Below, in pieces: positions 8,839 to 56,962 of a stretch of 64,000 nt of DNA; positions within the stretch are counted from its first letter, which is position 1, and each line of letters opens with the position of its first letter. The position numbers were made by a program, and so were the translations under genes. This stretch comes from a virus. The notes below the pieces were generated by a model. That model was not told the origin of the DNA. It did not search any database and saw nothing but the letters and a program-made list of their open reading frames with translations. Location: IMG/VR virus record IMGVR_UViG_3300030397_000361, positions 25-64,024 of that record; one strand, written 5' to 3'.

Positions 8839-9782
8839 AGTTCCATCCTTCGATAAACACCGATCAAGCTTCTAACCTCTTCGGGGAGTTGATTGGGCAT
8901 TAACACAACGCCAGTTGGCGAAGCTAAGGCTCTGTCGGCCTCACTGCCTACGCTGACCGGCCTACGCCAAGCGTAGGTGACAAAGACCTTCATTGCGTGA
9001 ACGATCTCGGGCATCGGGCGGTAAACGTAGATTTCTGTTGTCGCCGCCTGTTCAACAGCGGTTGTGCCATTGACACCCCTGATTAATTCAATCGTGTTGG
9101 CAGACGAATTAACGCTGATAACAAAGGCCATTTCTGCGCTAGTTGTGGTGCCAAACCGAATCAATTGAAACTTCTGAAACCGCGCCGAAAGGTTTAATGC
9201 GTCTTGTCCATCAGCGTTAGCCACGCTGCAACTTGTTCCAGACACAGCCAGGGTGCTTTGTACGGCATCAACCTCTTCCCAAGCATTGCTATACTGATCG
9301 TGATACCCCCACAAGCCATCTGCTTGATTGGCCTTTTGCGGTGTCCCCGAGAAGGTGAACACCTCGGCGCTGTCAAGGGTTAGCCTGATGCGGTTGTATG
9401 GCGCAAGGTTGTGATTGTCACCGCTTTGCAACAAAATGTTGCCTGACGTGACCGTTGTTGATCCGTTTTGGGTCTTGAGCGTGTCAAGGGCAAGCAGGTC
9501 TTCATCCAGACACAAAACCTTGTCTTGTCCGTAGACCAGGCGCGTATGCTGCTGGTCTACGGACGATATAGCTCCCCCACGGTCGGGATGGTCGTAATAG
9601 CGCGTTTCGTAAGCCGGATAAAAGCGTCGATGACAGTGAGCATCAAAGCGGCGTGAAGCCTCGACACAAAAGCGAGCTATGCGCTCGTCGTAGCGTATAT
9701 TTGTGCCACTTTGCGCCCCGTGTGTATCAGTGAGATACTCTTTGATCTCGTAGGGCGTAGCGTAAACGCCATAATTAGCCAT
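8835..9782 (-). CDS. Head-tail adaptor/connector
   Basis: YATPYEIKEYL ... ASRRFDAHCHRRF ... ETRYYD and C-terminal PEEVRSLIGVYRR resemble gp6/gp15-type connectors. Confidence 0.7.
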   Translation of the reverse strand: MANYGVYATPYEIKEYLTDTHGAQSGTNIRYDERIARFCVEASRRFDAHCHRRFYPAYETRYYDHPDRGGAISSVDQQHTRLVYGQDKVLCLDEDLLALDTLKTQNGSTTVTSGNILLQSGDNHNLAPYNRIRLTLDSAEVFTFSGTPQKANQADGLWGYHDQYSNAWEEVDAVQSTLAVSGTSCSVANADGQDALNLSARFQKFQLIRFGTTTSAEMAFVISVNSSANTIELIRGVNGTTAVEQAATTEIYVYRPMPEIVHAMKVFVTYAWRRPVSVGSEADRALASPTGVVLMPNQLPEEVRSLIGVYRRMEL

Positions 9783-10098
9783 TCACGAGAGCCTTTACAT
9801 CGCCAAGTGTGATACGTCCGCCTGCACCAGTTCCCGCGACATCTTTCAGATCAATGTCGTTCTCACTGGCAAACGCCAGAGCGGAGTCGGTCGCGTTGAC
9901 CTCTTCGGCCTCGACCTCTTCTTGTGGGTCCGGCTTGGACACATCAACCTTTTCGGCTAGTTTGCTGTCCACAAGTGATTGAGCGTACCAATCAGGATAA
10001 TCAACCTCATCATCCGCCGAGAGCGTTTGCGCTTTCTGGAATCCAGGCTTTGCTTTGAAATCGGCATAAGGCCCATCAACAAGGATTTTAACCAGCAT
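9775..10098 (-). CDS. Small head-region protein with E3-binding (PSBD)-like domain
   Basis: C-terminal ATDSALAFASENDIDLKDVAGTGAGGRITLGDV matches the peripheral subunit-binding motif (GIDLxxVxGTGxGGRITxxDV). Confidence 0.75.
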   Translation of the reverse strand: MLVKILVDGPYADFKAKPGFQKAQTLSADDEVDYPDWYAQSLVDSKLAEKVDVSKPDPQEEVEAEEVNATDSALAFASENDIDLKDVAGTGAGGRITLGDVKALVNG

Positions 10099-13961: not shown

Positions 13962-14154
13962 TAATTAAACCTTGACAATTGGCGCTTAATGCTTTTAAGC
14001 GCATTGATAATCACCCTTCTTACATTCTTGGAGCCTAAAGCCAATCCGATCACAAAAACCCACCAGTATGCGAGAAATGCTTCAATCATTTCCTTGCTAC
14101 TACCTTTCTTTAGATGCCCCGCCTGATAGCGTCGAACTCTTGTGTTTTACACGC

Positions 14155-14469
14155 TTAATTAAACCTTCGTAACTTTACTACAATTTCTCTGTCCGCACCT
14201 TGCGGAAACGTTGTTGACATGCGGAATTGCTCGCCCAGCCAGTGAGACTGATCATAGGTAAGTGTCGTCCAGCACGACAACGCGATACTTAGTGATAAGT
14301 CGTTGATTCTATAAAACACGCCGGTTGCGTCTGGTACCCACAGCCCAACGGTGGTGCCTGTAAAGGCTGCGGGCGCTAGAATTGCAACTGGCATGTACTC
14401 GGGCATCGAAACAACATCGCTTTGGGTTTGTCCTGACTGAATAGTTGCGGTTGCGTATGATTCTCTCAT
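14155..14469 (-). CDS. Hypothetical protein (possible virion accessory)
   Basis: 104 aa beta-rich ORF with GGAG SD. Confidence 0.6.
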   Translation of the reverse strand: MRESYATATIQSGQTQSDVVSMPEYMPVAILAPAAFTGTTVGLWVPDATGVFYRINDLSLSIALSCWTTLTYDQSHWLGEQFRMSTTFPQGADREIVVKLRRFN

Positions 14470-14640
14470 GTTCTAGCTCCTTTTTGTCGATTTCGTGCGG
14501 CCATAAACCGTGAAATTTCCAAACACAATGGTCGCGTTGTTTGGCATGTCGCTCGTCACTTCTACGGACAATCCCTTCCCGCAAGCAAAACTCACGGCAC
14601 TTACGCATAAATTCTTCAGCGCCCCTTGCGTTTTTCATCG

Positions 14641-14934
14641 TCAACCCTCTTGGTTCCATTCAAAAGAAAATTCGCCCCAAGGGAACGCCGACGCGCTCCC
14701 CGTTATTGTGGCTGTGATTTCAGGAAGCTCCTCAGATAAAGGCACTTCGCGCAAATCATCGTGTTCAACGTAGAAAAGGAACGTTCCATTCAAGTGATGA
14801 TGCCTGACAATGTTATGGATAATGGCATCGCTTGGCATCCCCAAAGCCTCTTTTATGAAAGATTCGTCTACCCGCATCACTGCCCTTCTGCGAGATGGCA
14901 ATTCGCTTTTATCGTGCGTCTTTTTAATTTCCAA
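14641..14934 (-). CDS. Hypothetical protein
   Basis: 97 aa ORF coupled to the MuF-like gene. Confidence 0.55.
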   Translation of the reverse strand: MEIKKTHDKSELPSRRRAVMRVDESFIKEALGMPSDAIIHNIVRHHHLNGTFLFYVEHDDLREVPLSEELPEITATITGSASAFPWGEFSFEWNQEG

Positions 14935-15613
14935 GTTTTTCTACCTCCAGCGGATCCCATTCTTTCGACAGGTTGACACAATCCTGGCAATGTTCGGCCT
15001 TGCCAAGCTTCCAAAAAACCTGCCATAGTTTATCAGTTTCCTTGATGCGAAGATGGCACCGGCAATTGGCCTTGCATTGCGTGTTTCCATCGCCTGGGTA
15101 CTGCCTTAGCCTGGGAACGCCTCGCCCTTCTGTTTTGGCGCGTTCAAATGCTTGGCTTGATGCTTCGATGTACATATTGGCCCTGGCTGCAACTGCGCCG
15201 ATGCTGTCTACCGTGTAGCGCCCGGAGGCAATGTCTTGAGCAAATCCGCGCAGAAATTCATATTGCCTGCGCAACATAAAGCCAAGTCGCCCGTAATCGG
15301 CCTGAGTCATATTATTGCGCCCGCCTCGCCCAAGCATATACTGAGCCACAAACACCGTCTTTATATTATTCCGCATCTCGGCTTCCCACTGCTGAATGGT
15401 AATCCGCTTGTCAAACAGGCGACGATGAACGACTTCAAGCCGTTGCTTGTAGCGGTCGTTGAACTGATCGCGCAATGCAACAGCTTGTGTGATGCGCAAA
15501 AAGCGCCCGTCACGACCTCGGTATCTTTGTGCGGCATCGTCCCACACCCAAAGCGGTGAGGGTGAAGCTTGCTTGTATTCGGTTTCTCGCACATCGCTAA
15601 ATACAGCCATCAA
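14924..15613 (-). CDS. MuF-like head morphogenesis protein
   Basis: Follows the portal; C-terminal PGDGNTQCKANCRCHL motif. Confidence 0.7.
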   Translation of the reverse strand: MMAVFSDVRETEYKQASPSPLWVWDDAAQRYRGRDGRFLRITQAVALRDQFNDRYKQRLEVVHRRLFDKRITIQQWEAEMRNNIKTVFVAQYMLGRGGRNNMTQADYGRLGFMLRRQYEFLRGFAQDIASGRYTVDSIGAVAARANMYIEASSQAFERAKTEGRGVPRLRQYPGDGNTQCKANCRCHLRIKETDKLWQVFWKLGKAEHCQDCVNLSKEWDPLEVEKLGN

Positions 15614-24072: not shown

Positions 24073-24348
24073 TCAGTGAATTTCGCCGACCAAAACCCAA
24101 TTGCCGTTCTTGTCAATGTCGTAAATTGGTCGCTTATCGCCGCCAACCTGAATTGCAATTGATGTGCTACTGGGGCGGCTTGATTCAATCGTCGATGCCC
24201 AGTCAGCACCAAGCCAATGCGGAGCAGGCTTGCATTCTCCATCTGGCACCTTGACACTAACCGCAGTCTCGTCTGCTTCGCCTTGCCCTGCAACCAATGA
24301 GCCTGCAATGGCGGCAATCGCGCCGCCTAGAAATGTTCTACGTTTCAT
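24073..24348 (-). CDS. Small protein with twin-arginine (Tat)-type signal
   Basis: MKRRTFLGGAIAAIAGSLVAGQGEA. Confidence 0.6.
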   Translation of the reverse strand: MKRRTFLGGAIAAIAGSLVAGQGEADETAVSVKVPDGECKPAPHWLGADWASTIESSRPSSTSIAIQVGGDKRPIYDIDKNGNWVLVGEIH

Positions 24349-32654: not shown

Positions 32655-33146
32655 TTACTTATCTTCCTTTTTTCGTTCGTATTCAGTATTATTGTCAGAT
32701 AGTTTTCTGGCCTCATCCCACAAAGCTTCATATAAATCAGATGATATATGTTTCTTGACTAATTTGTTAAAGTAATACAATGGCCCGTATTTCTTTTTTG
32801 GTTGATTTTGAATGATGCACTTAATAGCAATGTCGCATCTATCCCTCATATGTATAGCAGCAATGCCCCATTGCGATTTCAAGCGGCGACTCCGCTTGTG
32901 CAATTGTCGCTTTATGTCTTTTTGTATGGACTTAACCGCCATTATAATCTGATGGCACTCTGACGGCTCAAGCCTTTCCACAAACATTGCCAGCTTGTCA
33001 TCTGGCAAATGTATGATTTCTTTTGCTAATTCGGCGGGTGATTCGCTTCGCTTTCTTGATAGCCACCTTTCGCGCAAATCGTCAAGATTATGCGCCATTG
33101 CGCGAGACCCTTGCGAAGAACTACTGGTAATCATCACTCCTCCCAT
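32655..33146 (-). CDS. Hypothetical protein
   Basis: 163 aa ORF after the DnaC-like gene. Confidence 0.55.
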   Translation of the reverse strand: MGGVMITSSSSQGSRAMAHNLDDLRERWLSRKRSESPAELAKEIIHLPDDKLAMFVERLEPSECHQIIMAVKSIQKDIKRQLHKRSRRLKSQWGIAAIHMRDRCDIAIKCIIQNQPKKKYGPLYYFNKLVKKHISSDLYEALWDEARKLSDNNTEYERKKEDK

Positions 33147-33982
33147 TTCATCGCCGGTCGTGCGCTGCCCTGGCGATTATGCACAATTGAAAATCGGCCA
33201 TCCCTCACGCGGTCAAGTATCGCTGGCGGTAGTGTCTCAGGATCAACATTGGAGGCAAACACGGTTACAGTCTCGCGCTTTAATGCCTGGTTGTATCGCT
33301 CGTCCAAAAAATCAAAGCGAAACTCATCTGCAAACCCGGTTTCTCGCACCTTGTCAAGCTCGTCAATTGCCAGAAACTTGATGTCCTTTAACCGATTGAA
33401 CCGCTCAATATAACCCAAGTTGGCATATGGATCATTGTCCAATTGCTTTTGTTCGCGGAAGCTGTCACGCATCCAATTGATGAGCGTCGAAAATTTGACG
33501 TACATCGCGGGCCCGTCACCCGCCTCATTGATCTCATTAACCATTGCCATCAGCGCGACGCTTTTGGCGTTGCCACTGCCGCCCCACAAATACAACCACC
33601 CCTTTGGATCATCTATCATCGCTTGGCACTTGTTCAGCATTTCGGCATTGTCATCCGTTTGGGCGATATGGCTTAATCGTATGTCCAGGTCTGATCCTAA
33701 TAATCCGTTAATTGACTGCAACCGCTCAAGACGCTCAGGGTTGTGGCTTGGATCGTCGCAAGGAATCGGCTTACCAAATTGCGAATGATCCGGCTCGACA
33801 TCGGCCATCAAAAAGCCTTTGTCACCGCACTTAAGACACATAGGCCGTGGTCTTTCCTGTGGCCGGGTCGAAGACTTTGGACATATGGCCTGTGGTGTTT
33901 GCGATTCGGTTTTGCTCGGATGAATCTTGCTTACTACCTCTGCTATTGCTTGCATATCGTTTCTGCTCCTTTCGTGAGCCAT
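33134..33982 (-). CDS. DnaC/IstB-like helicase loader ATPase
   Basis: CxxC zinc region (CLKCGDKG...PCDD); variant Walker A GGSGNAKS; Walker B LAIDELD; VFASN. Confidence 0.88.
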   Translation of the reverse strand: MAHERSRNDMQAIAEVVSKIHPSKTESQTPQAICPKSSTRPQERPRPMCLKCGDKGFLMADVEPDHSQFGKPIPCDDPSHNPERLERLQSINGLLGSDLDIRLSHIAQTDDNAEMLNKCQAMIDDPKGWLYLWGGSGNAKSVALMAMVNEINEAGDGPAMYVKFSTLINWMRDSFREQKQLDNDPYANLGYIERFNRLKDIKFLAIDELDKVRETGFADEFRFDFLDERYNQALKRETVTVFASNVDPETLPPAILDRVRDGRFSIVHNRQGSARPAMKWEE

Positions 33983-34880
33983 TTAACTTATGTGCGGCCA
34001 GTGATCTTGATCGCTTAACGCCTTTAATCACACCTCTGGCATACCCCCAATTTCGAGCATCACATAACACCGCCTGCTCAATCGCGTACAAAATCCAATC
34101 TTCTGCTGTCTCATCCCCCTGCGGCTGATCGGCTAATATCTGCCTGATTTCGTCAAGTTCCGCCTTAATGCCATCGCTAATTATCGGGCTAATTGCGCCA
34201 ATCTCGTTTTGGTATGCTTTGCTGATACTGGCAAAACCTTGGTCAATCGGGCCGAAGTCCAAATCAGAGCCATCGTCATAGTCGGGCGCGTGCGTGCGCG
34301 TTGTAGTAGTAGGATTCTTTTCTGACTCTATATCTAACCCTAACCCTAATACTATCGGCCCGCCCATCGCTTTAGGTGTTTCTTTAGGTAAAGCTTTGGC
34401 TGAACCTTTAGGTAACTGCGCATAGCAATCATCCACTCTACCATTAAGGTCGTTACCTGTCGGTGACTCTGACTTCGCCTCGTTTTCGCCCTTCCAATTA
34501 TCGGTCAACACTTGCCCCCCCTGGCGGTATCGTTTGCGATCCTGCCAGCCCTCCATTGGCGGCAACTCTGACGGATAGGCCCATTGCGGATGCTGGTACT
34601 GCCACCAGTTTAGAATCTGTATGCAAGTCTTAGAGCCAGCTTTGTAAATGGCAATACATTCGGCTGTTTCAATCTCATCCAAGTCGGCTTGCACATCATC
34701 GGCTGAAATGTTGTCGAATGGGAAGACGATGGCCTTGACAAGCTTTGGATTGCCCTTGAGCCTTCCTTGATCATCGGCATTACTGATAAGGCCGATGAAC
34801 AATAACCGCTGCCTGTAGTTCAATTCCATTAATGATTCGCTTTGCCAAAATGCCGGGTCAATCATTCTACGACTTGCCAT
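33831..34880 (-). CDS. Phage replication initiator (DnaD-like C-terminal region)
   Basis: RRMIDPAFW, LLFIGLISNADDQGR N-terminus; C-terminal AYQNEIG...AIEQAV...NWGYARGVI; start MASRR with GGAG SD. Confidence 0.85.
   Translation of the reverse strand: MASRRMIDPAFWQSESLMELNYRQRLLFIGLISNADDQGRLKGNPKLVKAIVFPFDNISADDVQADLDEIETAECIAIYKAGSKTCIQILNWWQYQHPQWAYPSELPPMEGWQDRKRYRQGGQVLTDNWKGENEAKSESPTGNDLNGRVDDCYAQLPKGSAKALPKETPKAMGGPIVLGLGLDIESEKNPTTTTRTHAPDYDDGSDLDFGPIDQGFASISKAYQNEIGAISPIISDGIKAELDEIRQILADQPQGDETAEDWILYAIEQAVLCDARNWGYARGVIKGVKRSRSLAAHKLNGSRKEQKRYASNSRGSKQDSSEQNRIANTTGHMSKVFDPATGKTTAYVS
34370..34415. repeat. Iteron-like 12-bp-period repeats inside the initiator gene
   Basis: CTTTAGGT at 34370, 34382 and 34406; degenerate CTTTGGCT at 34394. 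Confidence 0.55.
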
Positions 34881-34941
34881 AACTCCACCTTTACCGCCTC
34901 TGCGGTCTATCATATCTCTGTCAACTGTCTGACAGATTGCT

Positions 34942-35232
34942 TCATTTTTGTTTCTTTTGCTCTTCGGCTTTGTTCGCTGCATCAAGATGGGCACGCAATG
35001 TCTTTTCCCAGGCATCTGTCACGGAATGTCCCCTATCTCTATAGCAACCATAGATACCTGACAAAGCGGTTATGGTGATGTCTCCTGAGTAATCCTGGCT
35101 TATTTTCCGGTAAACCTGCTCATCTGTCACGGGCACGGTGTGTTTGTCAATCATAATTGATATTCCTATGCTGCCTATCTCGATACTGCCTAATCTCAAT
35201 GTCCAAAACATTAGCCTCGCTGATAGCCTCAC
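34942..35232 (-). CDS. Hypothetical protein
   Basis: ORF track; true start probably later (MIDKH). Confidence 0.45.
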   Translation of the reverse strand: MRLSARLMFWTLRLGSIEIGSIGISIMIDKHTVPVTDEQVYRKISQDYSGDITITALSGIYGCYRDRGHSVTDAWEKTLRAHLDAANKAEEQKKQK

Positions 35233-44729: not shown

Positions 44730-45167
44730 TTAAGTCACATCGACTTTCGATAAAAGTGATTTCACTTCTCTGTATATTTCATCGCGTGAAGGCAAGACAT
44801 ATTGATCCGGCCAATGCTCTAAGACGCCGATGGTTTGGTCTACGGCATTCGCAACGCTAACTTTGATAGCAAATTGCAAATCTTGAGTTGCGCCTTCGTG
44901 CCAAAAGCCACCCGACTGAGTTACCCACACGATACCGTTCAGACAATCCATATGGACATATCCGTTTATTCTCGATTGAAATGTGTCTCCATCAATGATA
45001 ACTCGATTATTTCGCCGCTTCACCCTGGCTTTTAGCACGCCAACTTTGGTTGTAAAGAAACCTTCTATTTCGTCGCCATCTTCTAAATTTCGGCACTCTG
45101 CCAGCAATGGGGAAGGCCAGACCATACTATCTAAATCCTTATAATCATCTATTTCAAATTTCATCAC
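44730..45167 (-). CDS. Hypothetical protein
   Basis: 145 aa, GAAGG SD. Confidence 0.6.
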   Translation of the reverse strand: MMKFEIDDYKDLDSMVWPSPLLAECRNLEDGDEIEGFFTTKVGVLKARVKRRNNRVIIDGDTFQSRINGYVHMDCLNGIVWVTQSGGFWHEGATQDLQFAIKVSVANAVDQTIGVLEHWPDQYVLPSRDEIYREVKSLLSKVDVT

Positions 45168-45429
45168 GCACCTTCTTTATGATTGATTCTGGATTTCAGC
45201 AACTCGTTAGCCATATCACACCGCCTTATTGACCGTGATGGTATCATTGTGGGCACCATCTTTACTTATATTTATTTCTAATTCGTAATGGTCTACAATG
45301 TACATTTTTAGGATTTTCCAAAGTTCGGTCAAGGTCTTTAATTGCTGGTAATTGTCGCCGCCTTTGAGTTTGAATCTGCATTTAAGTTTCATTATTTGCT
45401 CCTCTAAAAGACTTAAGTAGGTTTATGTA

Positions 45430-47265: not shown

Positions 47266-47637
47266 TCATTCGCCCTCGCTTGCTGTCGTTTCCAGCGCAA
47301 TTTCTTCGATTTCGCAATCCTCGCAGATGAGAATAGTTTCGTGTTCGCCAGCCACGTTTTTTTGCTTGCTTTTCCACAAACTAGCTGGCATCTCAGCAAC
47401 GTGTCCGCAAGAAAAACGAACTGTTACGGTTTCGCGCTCTGGCACACCCATCCAGGCATCATTGAGCGCAGCGGCTAATGTGTCGCCCTGGCCGTGATAG
47501 GTGTCACTATCGCCAACCTGATTAACTGCGATCTCGAAATGCCAATCGTCGCCAGGGCTGAAAGTGATTTCGTATCCTTCGGCTATTAGTTGGATCATCA
47601 TCTGTTCTATGTTAGTCATTTTAGGTTGTCCTTTCAA
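47266..47637 (-). CDS. Hypothetical protein with zinc-finger-like C-terminus
   Basis: FSCGH...ICEDC. Confidence 0.55.
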   Translation of the reverse strand: MKGQPKMTNIEQMMIQLIAEGYEITFSPGDDWHFEIAVNQVGDSDTYHGQGDTLAAALNDAWMGVPERETVTVRFSCGHVAEMPASLWKSKQKNVAGEHETILICEDCEIEEIALETTASEGE

Positions 47638-47640
47638 GTA

Positions 47641-47749
47641 TTATTATAAGGCTATTAAAAGCTATTAGTAGTTCAGGTATCATTTTGACACTTGTATACA
47701 AAGGTCATTTTGATACTGTCGAAAACTTCGTGAGTATCATTTTGATACT
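47641..47749. promoter_or_regulatory. Candidate plasmid-type origin: three palindromic repeats plus an AT-rich tract
   Basis: GTATCATTTTGACAC (47677), GGTCATTTTGATAC (47703), GTATCATTTTGATAC (47734); AT-rich 47641..47670 with GCTATTA x2. Confidence 0.65.
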
Positions 47750-48471
47750 TTCGATAATCCTGCCTGGTCATCCGGTGTCAATGGCTCATCTAAGTATACA
47801 ATAAATTGCGTGCCTTCATTGCGTATCTTGTCACGACCAGATGAGTATTTTATGATCCGCATATCAGCGATGAAGTGACCCAAAAGCTCGTTTTGGAATG
47901 AGCCATCCTTGTTGCGTTTCAAGGCCCGCTTGATTGTCGGCTCCGAAACGCCAAGTGCATCGGCCAGCGTTTTATATGTGGTCTTGGTGGTATTGCGTTG
48001 CGATTTATGATGGCACAATTGGCGCAATTCACGAACCAATTCAGACAGCAATGGGCCGAGCAGCGGTCGCCATTTTTCGCGAAAGTAGCGCGTTGCCGCC
48101 CATTCTTTGCGATCTGGCTGGATGATGGCGTTTTCTGCGTTATGATATGCACCAACGAACTCGCGTTCGGAATCGTCGTCCGATTCTGCGTCAGGCAAGT
48201 GAATCGCCTTCGCCTCAGCCTTCACGAAAACCAGAGTAAAATCGACGCCATGCACGCTCTTGACTTTCTGCCTGACAATGCCTGACAGCCTGTTTTCTAT
48301 CATTTCCAGATTGGCCGACGCTGGCACCGACACGATGAGCCTGCCGCCGTCAATAGTCGCCACAGAGCCTAAAAAATGCGTGTTGAATGATCCGGCTGGC
48401 ATCGAGCCTTCGAGCGATTCCAGCACCGCTGGCCATTGACTATCAAACTGATTCGTGCTATCGTTGTCCAT
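47737..48471 (-). CDS. DnaA N-terminal domain fused to HTH (second replication initiator)
   Basis: WPAVLESLEGSMPAGSFNTHF...LIVSVP...MIENRL (DnaA domain I-like); C-terminal TYKTLADALGVSEPTIKRAL. Confidence 0.78.
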   Translation of the reverse strand: MDNDSTNQFDSQWPAVLESLEGSMPAGSFNTHFLGSVATIDGGRLIVSVPASANLEMIENRLSGIVRQKVKSVHGVDFTLVFVKAEAKAIHLPDAESDDDSEREFVGAYHNAENAIIQPDRKEWAATRYFREKWRPLLGPLLSELVRELRQLCHHKSQRNTTKTTYKTLADALGVSEPTIKRALKRNKDGSFQNELLGHFIADMRIIKYSSGRDKIRNEGTQFIVYLDEPLTPDDQAGLSKVSK

Positions 48472-48517
48472 AGGAATCTCCTAAATAGTATGCAGTAGCA
48501 AAAGCGGCTGATGTGCG

Positions 48518-48898
48518 TCAGCCGTTTTTGTTTTGGTCTGCATCGTCAATAATTGCCTTGATCCGCTCCAAGACTTCAACGGAATAATCGTAATTATCCA
48601 AAGCGCCAATGACCTCGGCTTTGATTTGGCGATGTCGCTGGTATTGCTGATAATCCGTATTGGATTTTATTATATCGTCCGTCAACGGTTCGGCATACGA
48701 TCTTCCGCTGTTCCATCGTGCTCCATTGTCAGAGCCTATCAGGTATCCATTCCGTTTCCGGAATCGTTTATCTTGGCAAATAACCTGAGTTTTGGTTACT
48801 CGATCCACAGTAAATATTTTGTAGTGCATCATTGAACCAAATGAGTGGTGAGGAACCGCTATTTTGTCGCCCGGTTTTACGTCATTCAATACGCTCAT
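48518..48898 (-). CDS. Hypothetical protein
   Basis: VDRVTKTQV...RFRKRNG motif; ends NKNG. Confidence 0.65.
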   Translation of the reverse strand: MSVLNDVKPGDKIAVPHHSFGSMMHYKIFTVDRVTKTQVICQDKRFRKRNGYLIGSDNGARWNSGRSYAEPLTDDIIKSNTDYQQYQRHRQIKAEVIGALDNYDYSVEVLERIKAIIDDADQNKNG

Positions 48899-53390: not shown

Positions 53391-54368
53391 ATGACTATGG
53401 AAAGTATACGCAAGTCACCCGATTTTAACAACCTAATACCAGTCGGATTCGACCCTGGCAACGGTTTCGCCAAAATCGCGTTACTAGGCAAAGTCGCCAA
53501 GCTTCCAGCCAATTTCAGCTACACTCAGCCCGATGGCGAATTGTCGGCCAAAACGCTGGCCAGGATCAAGCCCAAAGCTTTTTCAATTATCGCAGATGGC
53601 CGCGAACTGTGGTTCGGCCTCGATAGCCTGAGCAACGGCAATGGCAGAGCTATCGACCAGGCCAAATATCACGCTGACTATTTGCGCCCATTGTTTGCGG
53701 CCTCATTGGTGCAATGGTTCAAACAGCATCGGCAAAGCCCTGATATGTTGGACGGCAAGCGGCTGAATGTTGTGGCGTCAATGCCGCCCGAGCTATACCA
53801 GGACAAAGCGACGCGCACCAAAACCGAACGGGCCTATGCTGAAACATTCAACCATCGTATTGACTGGCAGGTCAAGAATAGCCAGGTTGACACGTTTCAG
53901 CTATTCACGCAGTTTCAACAGGTCACGCCGGAAACGCTCACGTATATGTCGGTCAACCTGGCTAAAGCTGGCTACACCGTGGTGTTTGACCTCGGTTATG
54001 GGACGCTCGATATAGCGATCTTCGCGGCTGGCAGTGACGTGCCAGTGATGACAAAGAGCTTGAATAAAGGATTGCTGCACGCATTTTCGAGCATTAATGC
54101 GCTGGCAGTCAACCAGGTCGAACTTGATATTCTGCGCTCCAAATCCTACGACCGGCTGAACGATTACTTCAATGAGGTTCGCACCATCGTGCAAACAGTG
54201 ACGCGCAAACTGCCTGAGCCATTGAAGCTGGTAGGCATCGGCGGCGGCGTAAATCTGATGAGCAAAGCAGCACGCGATAGCTTCAACCTGGCGTTTAGTG
54301 GCTTGATATTTAAGGACGAATTTACAAACGCCAGGGCAAGCGAGAGGGTTGCCAGAAGTGCGTTATAA
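53391..54368 (+). CDS. parM: ParM/StbA actin-like partition ATPase
   Basis: Phosphate-1 GFDPGNGFAK; VASMPP; phosphate-2 FDLGYGTLD; adenosine GIGGGV; FTNARA. Confidence 0.88.
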   Translation: MTMESIRKSPDFNNLIPVGFDPGNGFAKIALLGKVAKLPANFSYTQPDGELSAKTLARIKPKAFSIIADGRELWFGLDSLSNGNGRAIDQAKYHADYLRPLFAASLVQWFKQHRQSPDMLDGKRLNVVASMPPELYQDKATRTKTERAYAETFNHRIDWQVKNSQVDTFQLFTQFQQVTPETLTYMSVNLAKAGYTVVFDLGYGTLDIAIFAAGSDVPVMTKSLNKGLLHAFSSINALAVNQVELDILRSKSYDRLNDYFNEVRTIVQTVTRKLPEPLKLVGIGGGVNLMSKAARDSFNLAFSGLIFKDEFTNARASERVARSAL

Positions 54369-55894: not shown

Positions 55895-56226
55895 CCCTCC
55901 TATCACGTGCGGGCATACGTGGGCTAATGCTTTTGCAACTAGGCCCACAACGACCCGCAACGACCCGCGCCTGCCAGCAACGACCGGCAATTCAAGACCG
56001 ATATTCAATAATACATAACAACCCTTAAGTATTATAGAAAGGATAACGAACATAATGACTAAACAAGAGGCTTACGGCCTTGCCCTTCAAGCAATCGAAT
56101 TTACCAAATCAAATGCGTCGCTAAGCAAAGAAGATTATGAAGAGATGACCGAGGCCTCAAAAATTATTGAGGCGCAGATTATTATTGAAAATGTGATGTC
56201 ACACAAAAACCCGAAAGGATGATCTA

Positions 56227-56698: not shown

Positions 56699-56878
56699 CA
56701 GGGGTTAGGAGGCGCGGAGCGAAGGGGCAACCCGGCACGCAGGAGAGAGAAATTGAACGGAGGTTCATTGTAAGCCACGGGTATTATACCGCATCTGAGG
56801 CGAGTTAACAATTGCGGGTTGGTCACAGTTGGCTTACGGTTTACTCACATTTTGTTTATGAAGTTCATAGAAACTCAC

Positions 56879-56919
56879 TTGATTATTTGCTTGACAAGAA
56901 ATCAAAAATAGAGTATAAT
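56879..56919 (+). promoter_or_regulatory. Consensus promoter with an inverted-repeat operator
   Basis: TTGACA-17-TATAAT; TTGATT/AATCAA arms flank the -35. Confidence 0.85.
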
Positions 56920-56962
56920 TTAGATAGTTAAGCGAAACAGTAGCAAGAAAGGAAACTGAAAG

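Follow-up and report, generated by a model that had tools for sequence, protein, structure and literature searches.

A DnaA domain I–winged-helix gene and its adjoining dyad sites: a candidate initiator-plus-origin module in a tailed phage

The gene and its two domains

The stretch of DNA analysed here, hereafter the window, comprises 64,000 nucleotides (positions 25 to 64,024) of the IMG/VR virus record IMGVR_UViG_3300030397_000361, and the subject of this report is a minus-strand gene within it for a 244-residue protein, P0001 (47737..48471, stop codon included), considered together with the DNA that directly follows its stop codon. The record is linear and 64,402 bp long, so that the window covers nearly all of it; its completeness was estimated at ~75% (CheckV), and it encodes major head, portal, terminase, and tail-fibre genes of a tailed phage. 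The stretch is present in three DNA sequencing runs, all from one aquatic study, with no RNA run listed among the runs containing it, and the AT content of the window is 51%. Neither a DNA nor a protein match was returned from a phage record collection, and a peptide-pattern search of IMG/VR found no relatives. The gene lies within the early leftward operon, near a gene for a Cro/CI-type helix-turn-helix (HTH) protein, and its ATG start codon is preceded, at a distance of 6 nt, by the Shine-Dalgarno sequence AGGAG. The protein was resolved into an N-terminal domain (residues 8–84; 48220..48450, minus strand), an acidic linker modelled at low confidence (residues 85–125; 48097..48219, minus strand; predicted local distance difference test (pLDDT) 40–65), comparable in position to domain II of DnaA, and a C-terminal winged-helix domain (residues 126–243; 47743..48096, minus strand), which is predicted to bind DNA and to dimerise.

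By profile and fold comparison at the family level, the N-terminal domain of P0001 is genuinely homologous to domain I of DnaA. A total of 33 homologues were found, with identities of 31–58%, and a family profile (A1) built from 31 sequences matched domain I of Bacillus subtilis DnaA (4tps_B; E 1.2e-12) as well as that of Escherichia coli DnaA (2e0g; E 9e-6). PF11638 (DnaA_N) is matched individually by 20 of the 31 members, the best at E 4.5e-13; residues 11–67 of P0001 alone align with positions 2–60 of the 65 in this profile at E 0.15 and 12.2 bits, below the 24.6-bit cut-off. The AlphaFold (AF2) model of P0001 (pLDDT 84) contains a compact N-domain with the KH-like α-α-β-β-α-β fold, and its residues 4–85 superpose on B. 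subtilis domain I (4tps_D) with Z 12.3 and a root-mean-square deviation (rmsd) of 2.0 over 82 aligned residues; the corresponding Z for the Helicobacter pylori structure 2wp0_D is 8.7, and Foldseek gave TM scores against DnaA domain I of 0.80–0.84, depending on the target. The fold search also retrieved the KH-like domain of DciA (8a3v, Z 6.9; 7ykm, Z 6.2). Furthermore, at least 90% of the 31 members keep Trp13, whose counterpart in the alignment is the N-terminal Trp of the E. coli and B. subtilis domains, presumably Trp6 and Trp8, respectively. This N-terminal Trp of domain I (Trp6 in E. coli) serves self-association of DnaA. A Pfam scan of P0001 found neither the AAA+ domain III (PF00308) nor the DnaA-box-binding domain IV (PF08299), and PF00308 is without a match across the whole record, whereas 13 of 14 control genomes do match. 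Searches of PHROGs and NCBIfam with P0001 gave just weak HTH matches.

The C-terminal domain is the best-conserved part of the family, with a mean column identity of 54%. Residues 152–190 match generic HTH families in Pfam, the HTH itself being placed at residues 166–183 (47923–47976, minus strand), and the model shows a long helix, the HTH, a β-hairpin wing, and a terminal helix. When two copies of the domain were modelled together, an ipSAE of 0.77 was obtained, as compared with 0.00 for the best control; in calibration, 20 of 30 proteins solved as one-chain pairs reached the mark for this score, as did 1 of the 23 that had been solved as single chains. Three prediction runs share 98% of their contacts, with a partner pLDDT of at least 83. 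The predicted interface is symmetric and involves residues 112–151, 171–175, and 228–242, that is, the conserved long helix and the terminal helix, and such a homodimer would fit dyad-symmetric sites. The best structural matches of the domain are the DnaD N-terminal domain (2vn2_A; Z 6.5, rmsd 3.9, 92 residues), 5wtn_A (Z 5.9), and 8ojj_A (Z 5.8), with the winged helices of CRP, MarR, and TFE also matched at Z ~6. A sequence search of the PDB with the C-domain returned generic HTH matches alone and no specific solved relative. Comparison of the C-domain profile by hhalign with the phage's own 394-residue initiator, which is encoded elsewhere in the window, detected no kinship, and the Pfam matches of P0001 at E ≤ 10 include neither Phage_rep_O (PF04492) nor Rep_3.

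Dyad sites and boxes after the gene

The 3′ end of the P0001 gene is marked by three GTATCA-TTT-TGATAC-type sites. Site 1, the perfect dyad GTATCATTTTGATAC (47734–47748), overlaps the TGA stop codon; site 2, AGGTCATTTTGATAC (47702–47716), carries three mismatches and lies 32 bp from site 1; and site 3, GTATCATTTTGACAC (47677–47691), carries one mismatch and lies 25 bp from site 2. A GTATAC palindrome (47694..47699) occupies the spacer between sites 2 and 3 and is kept as TGTATAC or TGTATAT in the homologous loci L001, L003, and L007. The sites are followed by a tract of 72% AT (47620..47676), within which two copies of a box, GCTTTTAA and GCCTTATAA, stand 10 bp apart on the gene strand (47644..47662, minus strand); the box may serve for unwinding or as a site for a host factor. 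The least stable 100-bp duplex stretch of the 64 kb begins at 47584 and spans this tract. Site matches with at most three mismatches number 14 in the window, against 1.7 expected. Two other two-mismatch matches, at 24342 and 39942, were taken as chance occurrences, one standing in a start-codon context and the other in the interior of an open reading frame (ORF). An Rfam search of the region gave nothing meaningful, and the RNA fold z-score of −2.5 is due to the palindromes. Further minima of duplex stability occur at 32721–32830, 45120–45320, 56000–56060, and 56840–56950 and probably correspond to promoters or intergenic DNA.

These results bear out several parts of a first-pass annotation made from the window's letters. 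It had read P0001 as a DnaA domain I fused to an HTH without AAA+, a description that agrees with the family profile, the fold, the DnaA_N matches of the members, and the PF00308-negative record, and it had placed three such sites and an AT-rich tract directly at the 3′ end of the gene, where both were found. New here is that this arrangement is kept as a module in ten loci, with fixed spacing and an enrichment in boxes.

The comparison comprised the window and nine homologous loci (L001, L002, L003, L007, L009, L028, L030, L031, and L032), whose proteins are 31–51% identical. Each locus has three or four sites (the fourth in L031), with the first at or over the stop codon in most of them, and the spacing from site to site is 32–33 bp and then 24–27 bp, often with a TTGTATAC-like short spacer between sites 2 and 3. 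The sites are dyads in most lineages rather than directly repeated iterons; their CA-AAA-TG core is constant, whereas the flanking half-sites are lineage-specific (GTATCA, GGCCCA, ACGTCA, GGATCA, CTGACA, and GGGACA). Two or three (A/G)TGCTTTTAA boxes, 10 bp apart, follow the sites. Nineteen boxes were counted in 2.4 kb of module zones and six in the other 82 kb, a ~108-fold enrichment. In every locus, the locus-specific site is confined to the cluster after the gene, both in the 64-kb window and in the flanks of the other loci, and there is therefore no regulon. The gene after the module varies by locus, encoding small unknown proteins, FtsK, or a HerA-like ATPase, and no co-directional gene follows it at all on the Chloroflexota contigs L009 and L006, where the sites, four or five in number and with long perfect palindromes, extend over ~350 nt and are succeeded by ~110 nt of AT-rich DNA with several boxes on both strands. 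What is conserved is therefore the gene together with its own sites, and no target gene belongs to the unit. When viral contigs were scanned for the box alone, 86 loci were obtained, with the family gene or core sites in none of the 80 examined, so that the box by itself is not diagnostic.

Several observations concern individual lineages. Past the box-rich tract of L009, at 9290–9830 and before a divergent small gene, GATATTGC-type repeats and a cluster of TGTACA/GTGTACA occur, and these repeat families may represent additional sites at which proteins bind in this origin-like region. The L003 contig, which encodes P0011, has a second DnaA_N protein of 383 residues (14053–15204) 5 kb downstream, after an FtsK gene and an actin-like partition gene. 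The Anaerolineales genome G001, from which L005 derives, contains five DnaA_N ORFs of 472, 313, 588, 327, and 488 residues on contigs C57, C22, C50, and C11, showing that domain I is reused repeatedly in this lineage; its short form retains a single site, at the stop codon.

Long forms on plasmid-like elements

A profile of the C-domain only retrieved 758 proteins at E ≤ 1e-3 among 1.84 billion representatives. Besides short proteins such as P0001, long forms of 400–870 residues were found, in which the winged helix, often in two copies, is N-terminal and DnaA_N is C-terminal. Since short and long forms hold both domains, the domain pair travels together in either order. Family members also occur near genes for ParA, ParB, actin-like partition proteins, and FtsK/HerA. 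One long form, the 704-residue P0079, comes after HTH_17, parA, and parB genes on two contigs from different samples (L025, 1–15158; L026, 1–15028), and these are circular permutations of each other, so that the element is a circle of ~15.2 kb. This circle also carries an integrase, toxin–antitoxin pairs (YoeB/Phd), AbiE, and a chemoreceptor, and P0079 is the sole initiator (Rep) candidate seen on it. Three internal copies of a 400–500-bp repeat were likewise noted in the circle. Further long forms were located in an element with a type IV secretion system (T4SS) and next to genes for a DnaG-like primase and an actin-like partition protein.

The complete 212-kb plasmid of Leptolinea sp. HRD-7 (AP024711.1) encodes both domains in one ORF at 197.0–197.9 kb (DnaA_N, 2.1e-12; winged helix, 3e-14), and matches to Rep_3, RPA, and RP-C were not found on this plasmid. 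Its cumulative GC skew is V-shaped, with a minimum at 191,076 and a nearly antipodal maximum at 79,040, and an amplitude as large was reached in none of 500 block shuffles. The ORF lies 6 kb from a parA gene and 6 kb from the skew minimum, and the V shape predicts bidirectional replication from the region of parA and the DnaA_N–winged-helix ORF. Within Leptolinea's class, 12 of 121 sampled genomes carry the domain, which marks it as accessory. In the Atlas, mobile-element fusions of DnaA_N to HTH_36, RP-C, and AAA_25 occur, with Chloroflexota as the commonest phylum, and one neighbour cluster has Phage_rep_O in 17% of its members; both are leads only.

Candidate origin function, alternatives, and precedents

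We propose, with somewhat better than even confidence, that the P0001 gene and the ~120 bp after it form a self-contained initiator-plus-origin module. Conservation of the module in ten loci, the duplex-stability minimum, the Rep position of P0079 on the parAB circle, and the homologue near the GC-skew minimum of the Leptolinea plasmid support this proposal. The C-terminal winged helix would dimerise via its conserved long helix and bind the three dyads at their 32–33 and ~25 bp spacing; domain I, on its flexible acidic linker, would bridge the bound dimers and/or contact host replication proteins (domain I of DnaA, the helicase, or the loader); and the duplex would open at the adjacent AT-rich, 10-bp-periodic GCTTTTAA box. 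Within the phage genome, the module probably acts as an additional replicon, possibly one used in a plasmid state, next to a DnaD-like/DnaC-like pair at 33–35 kb. This pair, which the first-pass annotation had already picked out as a separate initiator and DnaC, was recovered as a replication-initiation/DnaD-like protein of 394 residues (33831..35015, minus strand; replication-initiation PHROGs, 1.1e-22) and a DnaC-like loader (33134..33982, minus strand; match 2e-16).

The same annotation had gone on to suggest a host-helicase-recruiting, low-copy second replicon operating alongside a lytic one. Its second-replicon part has been strengthened by the ten-locus module, the circular parAB element, and the Leptolinea skew; recruitment of the host helicase by domain I remains a guess, because the self-association Trp alone is conserved in that domain, and the two modes of replication, plasmid and lytic, may be entertained as fitting a partition-protein match at 53391–54368 (phrog_691, 1.3e-13) and the lack of a tyrosine or serine recombinase match (PF00589, PF00239) in the 64.4-kb record, itself ~75% complete. 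Taken further, the ~0.85-kb unit could be a minimal portable theta-type replicon of Chloroflexota-associated elements, in which domain I takes the place of an entire DnaA by tethering host DnaA or the helicase system to a private origin and which serves a plasmid prophage beside the lytic replicon; it would then represent a new class of initiator–origin pair. We offer this extension tentatively, as decidedly more doubtful than the module itself.

Several points weigh against an origin function. The residues of domain I that contact partners, which we take to be E21/F46 in E. coli and T26/W27/F49 in B. subtilis (contacts to DnaB, DnaD, or SirA), are replaced by Asn/Thr/His and Ala in P0001 and are variable across the family in the hidden Markov model (HMM) alignment, so that these hot spots are not conserved. 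The middling fold scores of the modelled C-domain do not separate initiators from regulators, and for the family as a whole we infer both replication and DNA binding from sequences and models. The phage already owns an initiator and a loader. A GC-skew minimum resolves an origin at the kilobase scale alone, and neither the distant Leptolinea homologue nor the ~15-kb circular element shows the phage's site pattern. Finally, the sites occupy an intergenic gap of the operon just 5′ of the next gene (47266..47619, minus strand), which encodes a protein of 117 residues from an ATG at 47619 and is without a family match, and the box region holds a perfect TATAAT on the gene strand (47643–47648).

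Because of this intergenic position and the TATAAT, an operator or promoter role is possible in the window, and P0001 might be a transcription regulator that acts as a dimer on three operators where its own gene ends and so controls the downstream early genes or its own operon, with domain I just oligomerising. Dyad sites and a dimer, here a predicted one, are common features of repressors and activators, the fold matches of the C-domain to CRP, MarR, and TFE point the same way, and a promoter-like TTGACA-16-GATTAT ends directly before site 1. However, the gene supposedly controlled varies between loci and is missing in L009, further operator copies are found neither in the 64 kb nor in any flank, and the box region is a poor promoter in most loci; in L002, the box ends ~12 nt before the ATG of the next gene. 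Elsewhere, DnaA_N goes with replication proteins, and on plasmid-like elements the domain pair holds the Rep position. On balance, we consider a regulator unlikely. The placement of sites directly 3′ of the gene for their binder is also typical of P1 incA, which lies downstream of repA, and of parS/sopC, and would suit a cis locus for plasmid maintenance, acting in copy control (handcuffing) or as a centromere-like element, with the origin elsewhere. The partition and FtsK/HerA genes near family members are in keeping with such a locus, but the partition systems of these loci have DNA-binding partners of their own (HTH_ParB in L025 and, according to the first-pass annotation, a ParR-like partner in the window), and the AT-rich periodic box and the stability minimum indicate melting rather than pairing, making a maintenance locus improbable.

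Least plausible, in our judgement, is that P0001 is a host-takeover factor in which a copy of domain I titrates or poisons host DnaA or its partners, the DNA sites being incidental. Domain I is a hub for DnaA self-association and for regulators such as SirA and HobA/DiaA, its structures 4tps and 2wp0 are the top fold matches, and the gene's position close to that for the Cro/CI-type HTH protein, within the early leftward operon, would be apt for such a factor; nevertheless, takeover accounts neither for the strictly conserved cis module at the stop codon nor for the occurrence of family members in plasmids and integrative elements, which have to coexist with their host.

For the proposed initiator-plus-origin module, the closest working analogy is that of phage lambda. 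Lambda O is a dimeric winged-helix origin binder joined to a helicase-bringing part, and the dyad repeats and AT-rich region of ori-lambda are coupled to its gene. P0001 resembles it in joining a winged helix, predicted to be dimeric, to a second part, and in having several dyads and AT-rich DNA coupled to the gene, but its domain order is reversed, with domain I replacing the P-binding domain, and its sites number three rather than four and lie at the 3′ end of the gene, not inside it. With chromosomal DnaA, P0001 shares domain I and the conserved Trp, without domains III and IV and without conservation of the hot spots. The N-terminal winged helices of DnaD and B. subtilis-type DnaB, which are extended, oligomerise, and act in initiation, are the best fold matches of the C-domain; however, their scores tie with those of CRP, MarR, and TFE, stand below the level that separates relatives from a common fold, and are accompanied by no sequence match. 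P0001 does not match the Rep proteins of iteron plasmids (Rep_3, WH1–WH2), having no Rep_3 hit and, in most lineages, inverted rather than direct repeats; the long forms do hold two winged-HTH copies, often. By analogy, the phage could be a two-replicon phage-plasmid of the P1 kind (oriR/RepA and oriL/RepL): the window contains two unrelated initiator systems and a partition match, with no recombinase match. The likeness does not extend to homology with RepA or RepL, and the phage record is linear and incomplete.

The nearest published precedent, and the closest relative by domain content, is the DnaA-like protein (DALP) of Rickettsia plasmids. It is encoded by all sequenced Rickettsia plasmids, being the sole protein common to them, and its conserved part is a C-terminal DnaA_N (PMC4316617); moreover, shuttle vectors with just parA, the dnaA-like gene, and the intervening sequence replicate autonomously (PMC3244465). 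Judged by published domain content, DALP is a plasmid-borne DnaA_N protein that, like P0001, is without AAA+. It shares the domain order of the long forms, of which P0079 also adjoins parAB, whereas DnaA_N is N-terminal in P0001, which has just 244 residues. A tblastn search of PLSDB with the long forms P0101 and P0056 retrieved no Rickettsia plasmid, and an origin structure of three sites plus box is not described in these two papers. No publication was found on the short DnaA_N–winged-helix family or its site module.

DnaA domain I is usually discussed within the chromosomal initiator, and here it appears as a free-standing module with a dedicated winged helix; phages, integrative elements, and plasmids reuse the pair in either order. 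From so stereotyped an arrangement, exact predictions follow as to which 15-mers would be bound, which 20 bp would melt, and which Trp would matter. If the proposal is correct, founding a replicon would need little protein, namely a site-binding part and a domain I handle. The module would also lend weight to a phage-plasmid lifestyle in a host group that has been little studied and could provide a compact vector backbone for Anaerolineae-type bacteria, whose phylum has almost no genetic tools.

In the surroundings of the P0001 gene, a gene with a ProQ_C-like product lies directly upstream (48518–48898, minus strand; PF24203, the phage ProQ C-terminal-like domain, 3.1e-6; phrog_9662). A terminator-like hairpin of seven pairs with a weak T run (48505..48524, minus strand) overlaps the stop of this gene and stands 34 nt before the ATG of the P0001 gene, which may thereby be partly insulated from upstream transcription. 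At 33–35 kb, the listed ORFs of the loader and initiator overlap by ~150 nt (33831–33982), and the loader probably starts at a later codon. A search for a second origin at 32.5–35.5 kb found weak repeats within the initiator gene and nothing else. A tandem 23–24-nt repeat, GCTTTAGGTGTTTCTTTAGGTAA / GCTTTGGCTGAACCTTTAGGTAA, stands at 34369–34415 inside the gene for the 394-residue initiator and is a possible iteron pair of the other replicon.

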